From assembly GCA_005400705.1 (NCBI GenBank), contig GCA_005400705.1_4079.1: a stretch of DNA of 64,000 nt; one strand, 5' to 3'. The notes under the pieces are model-generated. The model had not been told where the DNA came from. It ran no database searches and saw only the letters and a list, made by a program, of their open reading frames with translations. Made by a program: the position numbers and the translations under genes. This stretch comes from Escherichia coli. Lineage in GTDB: Bacteria; Pseudomonadota; Gammaproteobacteria; Enterobacterales; Enterobacteriaceae. Positions 11,303 through 59,678 of the stretch are shown piece by piece (position 1 is the first letter of the stretch; every line of letters starts with the position of its first letter).

Positions 11303-11304
11303 CT

Positions 11305-11448
11305 ATGCCAGTACGTAACAGTACTTCACGCTTTACGCTTCAACAGAAAGCAGATCTTTTGAATATGGCAAACAAAGATTCTAATTTTCACTATCTAGTA
11401 CTCGGTGGTTCAGTTGAAAAGATTGATCTACGTGAGTGTATGAAATAA
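11305..11448 (+). CDS. small ORF (47 aa), hypothetical
   Basis: ATG preceded by AAGGAG; below the ORF-track size cutoff. Confidence 0.35.
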   Translation: MPVRNSTSRFTLQQKADLLNMANKDSNFHYLVLGGSVEKIDLRECMK

Positions 11449-11463
11449 CAAAAGGGGACTAAA

Positions 11464-11634
11464 ATGAGTCTACGTGAATCATGGGAACAATTTAAAGAAG
11501 AGATTGGTTATCGTGGTGTGAAGATTGAACAAATCAATCGTACAGAAAGCATCAAAGCTAGTACGAATGGTACTACTTATGACCGTTATGATGAAAAGTA
11601 TGGTTTACATTCTAAACCGAAGGATACTGAATAA
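11464..11634 (+). CDS. small ORF (56 aa), hypothetical
   Basis: ATG preceded by AAAGGGGA. Confidence 0.35.
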   Translation: MSLRESWEQFKEEIGYRGVKIEQINRTESIKASTNGTTYDRYDEKYGLHSKPKDTE

Positions 11635-11777
11635 TGGTGTATACGAACATTTTTACTGGTATTATGCGTAAGTTTGTTAATGGTACTGGATATGTATCCA
11701 ATGACAACGGTAGTACATGGGTTAAAAATAATACGTCCGAATCTTTAGTGAAAAGTCTTCCGTATTATAAAGCTTGA
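11634..11777 (+). CDS. small ORF (47 aa), hypothetical
   Basis: ATG overlapping the upstream TAA (TAATG). Confidence 0.3.
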   Translation: MVYTNIFTGIMRKFVNGTGYVSNDNGSTWVKNNTSESLVKSLPYYKA

Positions 11778-11834
11778 CACATGAAAATGGAGTATGTATA
11801 ATACTCCTATATTAATCAAATGAGGATATACGAA

Positions 11835-17408: not shown

Positions 17409-17467
17409 CACATGAAGAATGGTTGGTACAAACTGAACACTTGGTTATAGCAAGTATGAAATTTTGA
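17405..17467 (+). pseudogene. truncated MTHEEW-family ORF (20 codons)
   Basis: Starts ATGACACATGAAGAATGG like four longer paralogs but hits a stop after 20 codons. Confidence 0.35.
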
Positions 17468-17768
17468 AATGAACAGTTGATGCACTTGGTAAGTAATAAA
17501 GCGTATTACGATGCATTCTTTGGGAAAATGCTACAATTGAGGTTCATGTGTATTATGCTATTACATTTGGTGATTAATTTATGAAATATGAACATTTAAA
17601 ATACTATGCTGATAGAATAAATTATTATCCCTTTTATATAAGATTAGATGCATTAATATCAAAAAAAGTTGTATATAAACGTTCTCAAGCTGAACTAACC
17701 AATATAGCATTCATTCTTGCAGTACTGTCTAAAATGGGATAATATTAAATTAAGATGGATATTAAGAG

Positions 17769-17945
17769 ATGACACATGAAGAATGGTTAGATGAACTAAA
17801 ATTCAAACATAATCCTTTTGGTTTTGGTATACGCCAAGGTCATTATGATGTGTTAAAAGATAAACAACTTTTCAAATCATTTGTACTTGATGCGGATAGC
17901 AACCACTGGTTCATCTATGAGCTTGCAATTAGAGACAAAAAATAG
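17769..17945 (+). CDS. small protein, MTHEEW family
   Basis: MTHEEWLDELKFKHNPFGFGIRQGHYDVLKD...NHWFIYELAIRDKK; paralog of 18287-18469. Confidence 0.5.
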   Translation: MTHEEWLDELKFKHNPFGFGIRQGHYDVLKDKQLFKSFVLDADSNHWFIYELAIRDKK

Positions 17946-17950
17946 TAAGA

Positions 17951-18049
<99 letters not shown>

Positions 18050-21459: not shown

Positions 21460-21750
<291 letters not shown>

Positions 21751-34744: not shown

Positions 34745-35710
34745 GTGAAAAAGCTTGATTTAAATACAATTGCCGAAGAAGTTCTGGATGAATGTTTTGC
34801 TAATGAAGAAGTCAACACACTAGAAGCCTTAGATTTCGTTGAAGATAAAGATGAAAATGAAGGTAAAGTACAAAGCAGTTTCAAATATAATATTACACTT
34901 AAGCGACCACCAAATGTTTCCAATGAAGATCTAATTCGTGATATTCAAGCTGGTATCAATGTAAAGAAAAACACTGAACTGTTAGTTCGTTACAATTATG
35001 GACTGATTATTGATGTAGCAAGTAAATGTACTTGTTATATCCCATTTGAAGATAAGATTTCATATGGTGTTGAGGGGTTCATGAGAGCACTAAAAACCTT
35101 TGATCTTAATAAGAATGTGAAGTTCATTACCTATGCTTCTTCTAGTATTTACATGACAGTTTATAACGAAAGTTCTGACGCTAACTATATGGTACACTTC
35201 CCACGTTATATGAGTGTTCATAAGATCAAAGTAAAAAGATTCTGCCAGGAATATATGCGTAAACATGGTGTTCGCCCAACTCCTGAAATAATCTCAGAGG
35301 GTACTGGGATTGAGATTCAGCATGTTAATAATTGTTTGTTATTTCAAAGCGAATACACTTCACTGGATGCACCATTAGACGGTGTTACAGATGGTACACT
35401 AGGTGACATTATTCATTCACCTGCTTCTGATTTTAACCTCAATGTTGATAGTATTCGTGCACCTTTACGTTATGCTATCAATGAACTGACTAACGAATTG
35501 AGTACTAAAGAACGTGAGATTATCCAGCGTGTTCATGGTCTAGGTGAATATGAACCTGAAACGCTTCGTGAGATTGCTGATAATGGTTTTGTTGATGATA
35601 ATGGAAAATATGTTAAATCCCGTTCATCAATACACCGAAAGTACAGTGAAGCTATGCAAAAGCTTAAGAAGCTAGTACTTGCAAAAGGGTACGAATACGA
35701 AGATTTCTAA
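34745..35710 (+). CDS. sigma70-family RNA polymerase sigma factor
   Basis: GTG start after AGGAG; region 2 (EGFMRALKTFDLNKNVKFITYASSSIYMTV) and region 4 helix-turn-helix (LSTKEREIIQRVHGL...ETLREIAD...KSRSSIHRKYSEAMQKLKK). Confidence 0.75.
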   Translation: MKKLDLNTIAEEVLDECFANEEVNTLEALDFVEDKDENEGKVQSSFKYNITLKRPPNVSNEDLIRDIQAGINVKKNTELLVRYNYGLIIDVASKCTCYIPFEDKISYGVEGFMRALKTFDLNKNVKFITYASSSIYMTVYNESSDANYMVHFPRYMSVHKIKVKRFCQEYMRKHGVRPTPEIISEGTGIEIQHVNNCLLFQSEYTSLDAPLDGVTDGTLGDIIHSPASDFNLNVDSIRAPLRYAINELTNELSTKEREIIQRVHGLGEYEPETLREIADNGFVDDNGKYVKSRSSIHRKYSEAMQKLKKLVLAKGYEYEDF

Positions 35711-35717
35711 AGAAAAA

Positions 35718-35743
35718 GGGTTGGCTTATGCCAACCTTTTTTT
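35718..35743 (+). terminator. intrinsic terminator
   Basis: GGTTGGC-TTAT-GCCAACC hairpin followed by a T7 run. Confidence 0.65.
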
Positions 35744-35749
35744 ATGGGA

Positions 35750-36360
35750 TGAAGTAAAAGTTTGTGATATAATTATCTTGTACAATTCTGTTGGCATGAT
35801 ATTCATGTACCTGATCCACTCGAAAACGTAGAGGGCAGTTGAGCAGTCCGACAGTGCGAACAGCAAAAGAAACCCGTTAGATGTGGGCATAGTTTGAACC
35901 CCTCACGGCAATGCGGCTGTATAAAGAACCACGTTAGGATAGCTGGTGGTTCCTTGATAGACATATAAGGATAACACCTTACGAATTATCTAAGGGAGAG
36001 TTATCAAATTTTGTACAGGAAAGTTGCGTCCAGAATTTGAGTACTCACATTAAGTATTTGATTGCATAGATACTTAATGAAGATACACTATGTTTAAAAG
36101 TGTAGACCGTCATATGAAACTGAAGTAGAGAGAAACAGGATGACCCGCTTTCGCACTCGTTATGAGTAATCTTCAATGCAATAGCTCTGATACCATCAGC
36201 GTCAAATTTCCCTCCTTGTGGGGGGGAAGAAAAATCCCTTCCTCAAATCCCGTCAATATTAAAAGTCCTTGACAGTTATTAATCATTCGCGTAGAATACG
36301 TAGTATTAGAAGCGAACAGACATCTCTTCGAGATGGATGATTAACCATTAAGGAATATCA
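35750..36360 (+). ncRNA. candidate structured non-coding RNA (unclassified)
   Basis: About 610 bp with no ORF of 60 aa or more on either strand in an otherwise saturated genome; locally GC-richer; extended -10-like TGTGATATAAT at 35763-35773. Confidence 0.3.
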
Positions 36361-36361
36361 A

Positions 36362-36571
36362 ATGAATTCAGTAATCTTTTTAGTAGTCGCTTTCTCTGTT
36401 AATTCCGGTGTACAAATTACCCCAATGAACTCAATGAACCAATGTTTTTCTGTACGTGACAGTACTTATGATCAAGTAAACCACATGTCACTTATGACAG
36501 TTAGTAAAGAAAGTATGTGGTGTTACAATAGTAATACTAACACAAAGCTTATTGTAGGACAAACTCAATGA
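36362..36571 (+). CDS. hypothetical protein
   Basis: SD AAGGAA. Confidence 0.5.
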   Translation: MNSVIFLVVAFSVNSGVQITPMNSMNQCFSVRDSTYDQVNHMSLMTVSKESMWCYNSNTNTKLIVGQTQ

Positions 36572-36798: not shown

Positions 36799-37587
36799 AT
36801 GAGCACTATCGATGAACTGATTCAACGGAATTCAAAATATTACCAACCATCAGAAATTGTGGATAACATTACTAAATCTGAGTTTGGACCGAACACACGC
36901 AAACTCATTCATGTAATGTCACGTGATGGCTTTAAATGTGATTGTTGTGGTGAATCAAATGTAGTATTCACTTTACACAAGCACAGTACTAAAGAACGTT
37001 ATAAATTCAGACCTTATGTACTTAAAGGGAAACGTCTTGTACGCATGACGTTAGACCATAACGTACTGGACTGTCTTCAGGGCGGTAATGATAAAGAGAA
37101 CATGACTGCACTGTGTGAAGATTGTAACGCATTACGCCAGCATAAGTTTGCTGAATACAGTGAGTTTAAACACTGGTATCATAACGCGGATCGTTCAATC
37201 GAGCCTGACGTTAACTACTGCTTCATTGAGTACATTAAGAATGCAAAAGATACATACATTCTTAAATCAATGTCACCTATTACCGTGTTTCCTGAGAACC
37301 TATTCACTACATTAAAGAATAGTTTTATTGTAGGTGATATTGATGCATTCAAGTATTTTGACAAAGGTGCAAAACATTTTGAAATTCAATGTCTTAGTAC
37401 TGCACTATGTGAACTCATTAAAATTTACATAAAAGAGTGTTTGGGTATTGACAATGTACGTGTACCAGAGTATACTTTTTCTATTGAATTCGATTGTGAA
37501 TCAATCAAAGAGTTTGGAATTCTTTTCAATAAACAAATAGAACTTGCAATTCAAAACGAAATCAAGTACTATACTACTAACATTTAA
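36799..37587 (+). CDS. HNH-motif endonuclease-like protein
   Basis: FKCDCCGE ... LDHNVLDCLQGGNDKENMTALCEDCNALRQHK resembles the HNH signature. Confidence 0.55.
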   Translation: MSTIDELIQRNSKYYQPSEIVDNITKSEFGPNTRKLIHVMSRDGFKCDCCGESNVVFTLHKHSTKERYKFRPYVLKGKRLVRMTLDHNVLDCLQGGNDKENMTALCEDCNALRQHKFAEYSEFKHWYHNADRSIEPDVNYCFIEYIKNAKDTYILKSMSPITVFPENLFTTLKNSFIVGDIDAFKYFDKGAKHFEIQCLSTALCELIKIYIKECLGIDNVRVPEYTFSIEFDCESIKEFGILFNKQIELAIQNEIKYYTTNI

Positions 37588-54942: not shown

Positions 54943-54952
54943 AATAAAAAAA

Positions 54953-54976
54953 GGGTTGACTTAGGTCGGCCCTTTT
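54953..54976 (+). terminator. terminator hairpin (GGTTGAC repeat family variant)
   Basis: GGGTTGAC-TTAG-GTCGGCCC followed by TTTT, then -10-like TATTAT. Confidence 0.55.
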
Positions 54977-55012
54977 GCTATTATATCTATATCGAAACGA
55001 AGGAGACAAACC

Positions 55013-58998: not shown

Positions 58999-59402
58999 CA
59001 AATACAGTACTGGCAACTCCACCGTCTGTAATATATTGTCCAGTACTGTAAATTTGTATACCATCGGTTAAGTAAGTTCTGTATAAAGTTGCTGTAACAT
59101 ATACGTTATTCATATTCATCTCTATTGGTAGTACACATTTGGTATAGGCCGACACATCTGTTTGTGTACCTATACCCAATTGACCTGCGTTATCGCCTGT
59201 GTTATTACCAGTTGCGTAAACACCCAATGAAGTTATAATATGATTAGAAAAATATGAATAACCCAAACTCTTGAGATTCTCTACTGTACAACGTACCATC
59301 TGACATAAGGGCAAAAACTGTTGTATCAGATGAAGCTATTTTTGTTACAGAAGGTTGTATGTTCTGTTTTGATGATGTGATAATTCTTCGAAAGGGTAGC
59401 AT
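58979..59402 (-). pseudogene. frameshifted, internally deleted copy of the RCC1-like repeat gene family
   Basis: Minus-strand ATG at 59402 after GGAGGA gives MLPFRRIIT... which stops after about 52 codons; the +1 frame continues as track ORF 58979-59314 whose C-terminus (AGQLGIGTQTDV...YRTYLTD...YSTGQ) matches the C-termini of the full-length paralogs. Confidence 0.45.
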
Positions 59403-59494
59403 TGTATCCTCCAAATGTAAATCATTATTATATTTAGGACAAAAAAATGCCAGTACAAGGCACTGGCATAAAATCTAAGCAGAAGGCATATCCT

Positions 59495-59605
59495 TCATCT
59501 TAATAAATGAAAATTGTGTACCAGTATTTGTGGTTCCAATTTCTTTATTTCAGGAAGAGTTGGTTTAATATTTCCGTACTTGACCATTCTTGCAAAAGGT
59601 AACAT
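59495..59605 (-). pseudogene. N-terminal fragment (36 codons) of an RCC1-like repeat gene paralog
   Basis: GGAGGGAATT-ATG then MLPFARMVKYGNIKPTLPEI... ending at a stop; carries the family promoter/SD context. Confidence 0.4.
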
Positions 59606-59678
59606 AATTCCCTCCTTTTATTTGTTATACTATATTTAATACAAATAAGAAAGCCAGTATCAAGTACTGGCTTTTACA

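Follow-up and report, generated by a model that had tools for sequence, protein, structure and literature searches.

The locus described here lies in a 64,000-nt stretch of DNA (the window) from an assembly filed as Escherichia coli (GCA_005400705.1, contig GCA_005400705.1_4079.1). Its source is an Asteriusvirus jumbo phage: positions 35790–36290 are 100% identical to Escherichia phage PBECO4 (195012–195512, minus strand) and 99.8% identical to phage 121Q. An open reading frame (ORF) at 34745–35710, called a sigma-factor gene in the initial annotation, does match Sigma70 regions 2, 3 and 4 in Pfam, region 3 above the cut-off and regions 2 and 4 just below it. It is followed by an intrinsic terminator, an extended −10 promoter and a segment without genes. 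Comparison with its homologues shows that positions ~35780–36265 on the plus strand are the gene for a non-coding RNA of ~485 nt, multiply pseudoknotted and of a previously undescribed class.

The initial annotation had pointed to a 610-bp segment at this place as a GC-enriched, ORF-free candidate for a structured RNA. No ORF of at least 60 aa is present on either strand from 35711 to 36361. This 651-nt gap is the longest of its kind in the window, 90% of which is covered by ORFs of at least 60 aa. The GC content of 35780–36265, at 0.41, exceeds the 0.333 of the window as a whole and lies at the 99.4th percentile among all segments of 486 nt, and the two GC-rich strings quoted earlier were located at 35831–35864 (GAGGGCAGTTGAGCAGTCCGACAGTGCGAACAGC) and 36210–36229 (CCCTCCTTGTGGGGGGGAAG). 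The preceding terminator (stem 35719–35736, T7 at 35737–35743) and the extended −10-like element were likewise found in place. The proposal of a structured RNA holds for a narrower interval of ~35780–36265, where an RNA is conserved in a strand-specific manner, shows strongly covarying helices and pseudoknots, and has a promoter of its own; the remainder, 36266–36361, is a separate, shorter conserved non-coding stretch (Table 1). Three other long gaps in the window with neither an ORF of at least 60 aa nor a tRNA call (11303–11819, 17409–17876 and 59315–59678) could hold further non-coding elements.

Table 1. Features of the RNA locus in window coordinates. Paired fractions and covarying pairs refer to the 65-sequence alignment described in the text.
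Feature	Position	Strand	Sequence and support
Intrinsic terminator of sigma-factor gene	35719–35743	+	Stem GGTTGGC/GCCAACC, loop TTAT, T7
Predicted RNA promoter	35746–35773	+	Extended −10 TGTGATATAAT at 35763–35773; −35-like GGGATGAAG ~17 nt upstream
Conserved structured RNA, ~485 nt	35780–36265	+	nhmmer matches 35805–36267
P1	35788–35794 with 35848–35854	+	CTGTTGG with CCGACAG; encloses H0 and H1
H0, hairpin inside P1	35795–35807	+	Variable, poorly aligned
H1, hairpin inside P1	35811–35838	+	Conserved loop GAAAACGTA; 91% paired, 7/8 pairs covary
H2s, 3-bp stem	35843–35845 with 35855–35857	+	Flanks 3' strand of P1; 100% of cells paired
Pa	35860–35864 with 35916–35920	+	Encloses Pb; 99.4% paired, 3 covarying pairs
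Pb, hairpin	35874–35908	+	Conserved loop GGCATAGTTTGAACC; base 88% paired
Pc, hairpin	35926–35952	+	GAACCAC...GTGGTTC; 87% paired, 7/7 pairs covary
Invariant run	35957–35967	+	GATAGACATAT; just 5' of Pd
Pd, hairpin	35966–35981	+	TAAGG/CCTTA; 86% paired, 3 covarying pairs
Near-invariant single strand	35991–35998	+	TAAGGGAG; 3' of Pd
Pe, hairpin	36004–36040	+	Conserved loop GTACAGGAAAGTTGCGTCCAG, family consensus GUACAAUAUAGAUCCGUCCA; poorly aligned, 56–75% paired
Pf, hairpin, 10-bp stem	36048–36079	+	Loop TTGATTGCATAG; 85% paired, 10/10 pairs covary
Pseudoknot 2 (PK2)	36061–36067 with 36176–36182	+	Pf loop ATTGCAT with ATGCAAT just 3' of Ph; 95.7% paired, 7/7 pairs covary
Pg, hairpin	36085–36103	+	ACACT...AGTGT; 88% paired, 4/5 pairs covary
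3' core	36105–36175	+	Invariant GACCGT, then PK3, Ph, Pi, Pj
Pseudoknot 3 (PK3)	36109–36113 with 36140–36144	+	GTCAT with ATGAC in Pi loop; 100% paired, 3 covarying pairs
Ph	36121–36125 with 36171–36175	+	99.1% paired, 5/5 pairs covary
Pi, hairpin	36128–36152	+	Loop AAACAGGATGACCCG; 100% paired, 4/5 pairs covary
Pj, hairpin	36155–36167	+	95% paired
3' region	36200–36256	+	CGTCAA motif 1 (36200–36205), Pl, tail CAAATCCCGTCAA, motif 2 (36251–36256)
Pl, hairpin	36207–36228	+	TTTCCCTCC/GGGGGGGAA; core 79% paired, many C-G to U-G changes
Second conserved non-coding stretch	36266–36361	+	Between RNA and next gene (ATG 36362)
TTGACA	36269–36274	+	Within 36266–36361
Small hairpin	36285–36297	+	ATTC-GCGTA-GAAT; within 36266–36361, along with ACGTAGT
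Hairpin	36321–36335	+	Within 36266–36361
Shine–Dalgarno sequence (SD)	36350–36355	+	AAGGAA; before ATG 36362

The structure was tested by mapping the helix list of the window copy onto a MAFFT alignment of 65 copies with less than 93% pairwise identity. In this alignment 81.1% of the cells are paired, compared with 66.6% in shuffled controls (0 of 500 as high) and 38–41% when the partners were slid by 1–3 columns. Double-change cells number 1107 versus 364 expected, and the covariation score is 0.374 versus 0.143. RNAalifold, run on 21 copies, yielded 56 pairs; compensatory double changes occur in 25 of these, and broken pairs are nearly absent. The best-supported helices are H1, H2s, Pa, Pc, Pd, Pf, Pg, Ph, Pi and Pj, and PK2 and PK3 are equally well supported. 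Multiple double changes are found in PK2, PK3, Ph, Pi, Pa and H2s, all of them 96–100% paired; two pairs of H2s alone account for 26 and 10. About 55 positions are invariant and ~65 more are conserved in at least 90% of the copies. The covariation check recommended in the initial annotation therefore shows ~13 helices and 3–4 pseudoknots backed by compensatory changes, which amount to a compact fold.

Since MAFFT misaligned P1, this helix, which together with H2s forms pseudoknot 1, was assessed without the alignment. The leader strand always lies 22–34 nt upstream of H1, and the loop tested for complementarity is the one between the two strands of H2s. In 45 of the 65 lineages the best match has exactly 8 bp, and in 51 it has 7–9 bp; the mean is 7.29 compared with 5.53 ± 0.12 in shuffled loops. 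Compensated variants are, in DNA notation, CTGATTGA/TCAATCAG, CTGAAAGG/CCTTTCAG, ATGTTGG/CCAACAT and ACAACGG/CCGTTGT, and, in RNA notation, CUGAUUGA/UCAAUCAG, CUGAAAGG/CCUUUCAG, AUGUUGG/CCAACAU, ACAACGG/CCGUUGU and UUUGAAUG/CAUUCAA. Further downstream, the Pa/Pb junction is formed by the strands AAAAGAAA and CAATGCG, and the tip of Pb is swapped or missing in RaK2-like phages and in copies on chromosomal islands. AAGGGA is unchanged in all 65 copies. In PK3 the family consensus is GACC-GUYRY, pairing with the Pi loop. The PK2 pairing could be formed within one RNA molecule or between two.

The Pe stem is seen in the sequence, and its covariation was judged by eye. In some lineages a hairpin with the GUACAAUAUAGAUCCGUCCA loop is found inside Pj instead. 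The copy on the E. coli island has hairpins at both positions, so two ancestral copies with differential loss are indicated, and a relocation of the module, which we had considered, was dropped. The two motifs of the 3' region (UCAUCGUCAG... and UCUCGUCAG...) change identically rather than complementarily, to TGTCA, CGACA and CTTCA in three independent lineages. This parallel variation suggests a shared partner or an alternative pairing; no partner sequence was found for the twin CGTCAA motifs. Two pairing proposals were rejected: a hairpin of the window copy at 36187–36199 is not conserved (28% paired), and long-range 3-bp pairs suggested by RNAalifold (TGA/TCA and GAC/GTC) are invariant, with the CGACA variant left uncompensated.

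Within the supported helices G·U combinations clearly outnumber A·C (339 versus 79), and the structure therefore belongs to the plus strand, which is also that of the promoter. A protein-coding origin finds no echo in the alignment. Indel lengths leave remainders of 1, 2 and 0 on division by three in 631, 294 and 176 cases, so multiples of three are not favoured, and column variability shows no 3-nt periodicity (p = 0.53). With relatives that keep a non-coding element at this place, these data exclude the decayed protein gene that the initial annotation had raised as a counter-explanation.

The element TGnTATAAT heads 46 of the 47 copies inspected, the remaining one having TATACT, and among these copies a −35-like TGAAAC, GGAAC or GGGACA lies ~17 nt upstream. 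In the window there are 24 such promoters on the plus strand (e.g. 18764, 20588, 21480 and 35765) versus 4 on the minus strand, and many of the plus-strand sites have TTGAC, TGGAC or GGGAC at −35. Three tRNA genes (18783, 20603 and 21499) each have their own TGnTATAAT promoter 12–19 nt upstream. Because the same promoter type stands directly before these genes, the RNA seems to be wired like the stable RNAs of the phage. The last of the three, a tRNA-Ser at 21499–21590 according to ARAGORN, has the unusual anticodon ACT and, with 49.9 bits, the lowest score of the six Rfam tRNAs. A seventh tRNA (Gly, 17973–18045) was called by ARAGORN only and is not listed by Rfam at the gathering threshold.

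From the position of the promoter, transcription presumably starts at ~35780, 8 nt before the P1 strand. The 3' end was placed at the limit of conservation, probably close to 36265, as conservation drops sharply past the second CGUCAR motif (~36265). The copy of Serratia phage BF and that of the E. coli island are 81% identical, with the similarity ending at the borders of the RNA. On the upstream side the sigma-gene terminator probably separates the RNA unit from preceding transcription. Its sequence (35713–35742) resembles stretches of ~30 nt at ~44169, 48939, 50023 and 54944–54979 (77–83% identity), which suggests a common terminator consensus. An additional hairpin with a U-run is present in some copies of the RNA, either at the 5' end or within the 3' region, but at neither place in the window copy; where it is internal, conservation carries on past it.

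A module equivalent to 36266–36361 follows every copy up to the next gene (e.g. at the loci L027, L093, L138, L152 and L263:20585–20700). Its motifs are, in order, GUrUUrAACGUA, GAAUUGAG, C-GNA-G hairpins (ACGAAGUGA, GCGUAGC) and AACGAAAAUUCUUGAC with a hairpin, in whose loop some copies expose the SD GGAG. Hairpins with C-GNA-G loops are common to phage and island copies; CG[AT]AG occurs 1.34 times per 250 nt downstream of the RNA versus 0.24 in the window, a 5.6-fold enrichment. In the window copy TTGACA-17-TAGAAT was scored as a promoter, and it may be one or may be part of the hairpin module. As a whole, the module might belong to the next promoter or else be a signal for processing or protein binding. 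Some 0.5 kb downstream of the RNA, a 262-aa ORF (36799–37587) has no Pfam match; by eye, its Cys-x2-Cys, His-Asn, Asn and Cys-x2-Cys spacing is HNH-like.

Searching with the core in blastn revealed matches of ~430–440 nt with ~70% identity in distant RaK2-like phages, across phage genera: Serratia BF, Erwinia pEa_SNUABM, Pectobacterium CBB, Cronobacter GAP32, Yersinia fHe-Yen9 and Salmonella 7t3/Munch. They lie mainly in unannotated DNA, at 3–5 places per genome. A larger collection was obtained by pattern scans of IMG/VR, metagenomes and GTDB genomes and filtered with nhmmer profiles; this filter was needed since the matches to one loosely defined DNA pattern were mostly due to chance. More than 100 full-length copies in ~24 sequence groups resulted. 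RaK2-like jumbo phages have 2–5 diverged paralogues per genome, which are syntenically conserved. In 121Q the copies lie at ~90.3 kb (the equivalent of the window copy), 192.9 kb and 326.7 kb. BF, GAP32, CBB and fHe-Yen9-04 have five blast places each, of which four copies were located in each genome, at ~25–35, 93–99, 174–178 (260 in fHe-Yen9-04) and 335–341 kb; in fHe-Yen9-04 the four of five are at 24, 93, 260 and 335 kb. In RaK2 itself the copies, at 191 and 280 kb, are divergent. Within the 64-kb window there is no second copy, and only the terminator motif recurs. The paralogous loci have no fixed neighbour gene, and no protein family is common to all of them.

Full-length copies were also found in Enterobacterales chromosomes, including one complete chromosome of Serratia fonticola, and on contigs assigned to Citrobacter amalonaticus, Enterobacter chinensis, Silvania, Buttiauxella and another Serratia. 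Among complete E. coli genomes 2 of 5426 are carriers; no copy was found on plasmids. These chromosomal copies occur singly, each on a small integrative island (e.g. loci L152, L149, L147, L150, L151, L155, L138 and L140, and L263 in E. coli LR-29-1). The commonest gene order is an integrase (large serine or tyrosine type), the RNA, an oppositely oriented gene for a CI-like HTH/S24 repressor and a 286-aa membrane protein; no phage homologue was found for the island membrane protein (F15). The recurrent island core also includes an LprI-like protein. A second island type has the RNA at its edge, beside two ParB/RepB-like genes and a serine recombinase. Integrases, of two unrelated types, adjoin the RNA on islands only and at none of the phage loci. 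The island of E. coli LR-29-1 (NZ_AP027515.1, ~3,473,000–3,483,600) lies beside ffs and contains candidate defence genes (PDC-M45). About 450 nt after the RNA of the E. coli island an AT-rich stretch (L263:21030–21075) has three TATCGATCGTT-like direct repeats, which resemble iterons or operators. At least four of the sequence groups contain island RNAs, and in one case a copy from an island clusters with one from a phage, an indication that the RNA has passed between phages and islands more than once. The islands could have a tie to jumbo phages, either as satellites or as defence elements.

The Rfam scan advised in the initial annotation (Rfam 15, whole window) reported only tRNAs at the gathering thresholds. 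Among 4227 Rfam models there was no credible match to the 900-nt region 35600–36500 at E ≤ 10 or to eight other copies at E ≤ 5. The earlier impression, gained by eye, that the segment is neither tRNA, tmRNA, RNase P RNA nor group I intron agrees with this result and with the absence of an ARAGORN tmRNA in the window. For a group I intron, the P3–P8 core model RF00028 gave no match at the same thresholds, and the RNA is preceded by a terminator and a promoter and followed by the next gene, with no split ORF on its flanks. In RNase P RNA the comparison fails on the leader as well, which pairs ~60 nt downstream and not with the 3' end. ROOL, GOLLD, OLE, HEARO and raiA gave no covariance-model match at gathering or permissive thresholds. 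A guide-RNA scaffold (omega RNA, bridge RNA or tracrRNA-like) was rejected because there is no constant effector or recombinase gene and both RNA ends are conserved or paired. Likenesses noticed by eye to a hammerhead, a T-loop, an SD mimic, RNase P P4 and group I P/Q/R/S all fail against the covarying helices. The locus fits the general picture of an independent stable-RNA gene, with its own promoter, a covarying structure and no coding signal. The literature consulted on jumbo phages, RaK2-like phages, Sharanji and EJP2, including a jumbo-phage review, contains no description of the RNA and no RNA-seq of a RaK2-like phage.

In kind, ROOL and GOLLD (RF03087 and RF01998) are the closest known RNAs, although membership in those families fails by sequence and structure. 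Both assemble into cages, and some of their covarying loop-loop pairs are contacts between RNA molecules, as seen by cryo-EM (PMC12286853). Like them (~500–800 nt), the present RNA is large, multiply pseudoknotted in the manner of "ornate" RNAs and borne by phages (in their case also prophages), with neither an associated protein gene nor an assigned function. The partners in PK2 or in the twin CGUCAG motifs could be on different RNA molecules. In contrast to ROOL and GOLLD, it matches no Rfam model, is found in Enterobacterales jumbo phages and islands with 2–5 paralogues per phage genome, and does not lie beside tRNA arrays, the nearest tRNA being ~13 kb away. HEARO (the omega RNA of IscB) and OLE are likewise large conserved RNAs, of bacteria or mobile elements, known at first from covariation only, and they act as ribonucleoprotein (RNP) scaffolds. 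Each of the two has a fixed partner gene nearby (IscB; OapA/B/C), whereas no protein family accompanies the present RNA, which matches neither in Rfam and has no variable guide segment at either end, its 5' end being paired in P1. Another jumbo phage related to the RaK2-like phages, PA5oct, has two abundant ORF-free transcripts defined by RNA-seq, ncRNA001 and ncRNA002, one of them 451 nt long (PMC7318152). The first 30 kb of PA5oct, which hold both, gave no nhmmer match, and the motifs are absent by eye; hence, these transcripts are probably unrelated to our RNA.

On balance, we slightly favour a stable folded RNA that acts in trans, alone or with a host factor. The reasons are the self-contained unit of promoter and RNA, the absence of a protein partner that travels with it, the convergent gene next to it on some islands and the tRNA-type promoter. 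The host sigma-70 RNA polymerase would transcribe the RNA from the extended −10 promoter immediately after infection, as for the phage tRNA genes; on islands transcription would be constitutive. The RNA would then fold into a stable particle and act in trans through its tertiary structure, be it as a ribozyme-like RNA, as an RNA-only assembly or as a complex with a host factor. Because no phage or island protein travels with the RNA, its partner or target would have to be the RNA itself or something that every enterobacterial host supplies. Since the RNA is carried by virulent jumbo phages and by islands, of which one has candidate defence genes, conflict between phage and host or between elements would be the likeliest arena.

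Several points weigh against a trans-acting RNA. Transcription, the ends of the RNA and its stability are all things we infer from sequence features, and the role in conflict is deduced purely from the kinds of carrier. Folded as a single sequence, the RNA has an unremarkable energy (z = −1.5 for either strand), a value that is uninformative here because a pseudoknotted RNA is expected to behave so. The phage copies are spaced 60–130 kb apart, and an RNA acting in trans has no need of such spacing. No terminator was found 3' of the RNA in the window, nor, in most copies, any between the RNA and the next gene. Finally, the conserved module ties the RNA to the co-directional genes downstream, so that a longer transcript may begin with the RNA, which could then act in cis.

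A bolder version of the trans-acting RNA, which we regard as speculative and rather doubtful, is that of a new catalytic or self-assembling class, either a ribozyme or an RNA-only particle like those of ROOL and GOLLD. It would be a portable weapon or shield in the conflicts of jumbo phages, hosts and islands with one another. The islands, as satellites or defence elements, would copy the phage RNA in order to hijack or jam it.

The missing terminator and the module reaching to the SD and start codon would both be explained by a cis-acting leader. In this explanation, which we judge unlikely, an early operon transcript would begin with the RNA as its structured 5' part and be controlled by it through, for example, put-like processive antitermination, protection from Rho or RNases or control of translation of the downstream genes. 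The phage genes downstream are co-directional with it, and the terminator-like hairpins with U-runs at the 5' end or in the 3' region of some copies are obstacles that a polymerase must pass. The HK022 put and EAR antiterminator RNAs are similarly promoter-proximal, structured and ahead of co-directional phage genes. They comprise, however, 70–120 nt with two or three simple stem-loops, whereas the present RNA has ~485 nt, is pseudoknotted and may face a convergent gene; we know of no antiterminator RNA, at ~70–120 nt, with a comparably knotted core. A leader, riboswitches included, is also difficult to reconcile with downstream gene families that differ among the paralogous loci and with the commonest island type, where the next gene is the CI-like repressor on the opposite strand. 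Moreover, the similarity between phage and E. coli island ends at the RNA borders, and both the window copy and its orthologues are followed by a predicted sigma-70-like promoter.

The spacing of the phage copies speaks for an origin or primer RNA, a possibility that we nevertheless consider quite unlikely. Each copy would mark a replication origin at which a persistent hybrid primes the phage replisome, as with ColE1 RNA II or T4 oriF/oriG, and the islands would thereby be replicated by an infecting jumbo phage. Those systems are promoter-driven transcripts of ~0.5 kb whose folding, in RNA II, governs priming. T4-type phages have several dispersed origins, and the copies of the present RNA are likewise dispersed, at 60–130 kb in 121Q, for four of the five copies in fHe-Yen9-04 and for four each in BF, GAP32 and CBB. 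A strong promoter stands ahead of every copy, an invariant G6 run lies 3' of a C-rich strand, the small islands with the RNA show no replication gene within the 8–40 kb of sequence examined, and the AT-rich stretch with iteron-like repeats follows the RNA in the E. coli island. However, the RNA is far more conserved and knotted than ColE1 RNA II or the T4 origin transcripts, with covarying pseudoknots and ~120 conserved positions far beyond the needs of a primer. No RNase H site was identified, no conserved AT-rich unwinding element adjoins the RNA, and there is no skew or change of gene orientation at the locus. To our knowledge, no satellite uses an origin borrowed from its helper phage.

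A highly diverged member of a known large class (group I intron-like ribozyme, RNase P RNA, tmRNA, ROOL, GOLLD, OLE or HEARO) is very improbable. Size and number of pseudoknots are ribozyme-like, and by eye a few conserved strings are loosely similar to group I P/Q/R/S elements or to the stretch ACAGAACCCGGCUU of RNase P (GAAACAG..AACCCGCUU). Against this stand the negative Rfam and ARAGORN searches, the absence of an interrupted gene and a helix order that fits neither P1–P9 nor the P1–P4 topology of RNase P; an RNase P-like P4 cannot form because CUUCC, the look-alike of its 3' strand, is paired in hairpin Pi. A protein-coding remnant or small-protein gene is practically ruled out, since the base-pair changes are compensatory, the indels and codon phase behave as described above, no ORF is conserved in position and the best-annotated records leave the region empty. 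Short ORFs do exist, and the 3–5 short "hypothetical proteins" placed over the RNA locus by automated annotation in several GenBank records (OR699181, OR699183, OR699188, PP886230, PQ330092, PV611058 and others) are almost certainly spurious.

Natural RNAs of such size and conserved tertiary structure are rare. Large structured RNAs with known function are ribozymes or RNP cores, and ROOL and GOLLD are known only for cage assembly. With more than 100 sequences, strong covariation, a tractable E. coli host and isolated phages (PBECO4, 121Q, phAPEC6 and Sharanji), structure, partners and phenotype are directly testable. The RNA family deserves an Rfam entry, also in view of the mis-annotation of its locus in various GenBank records. 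The presence of several diverged copies per jumbo phage, together with those on islands, hints that jumbo-phage biology, or the interplay of phages and islands, has an RNA-based layer that has so far gone unrecognised.

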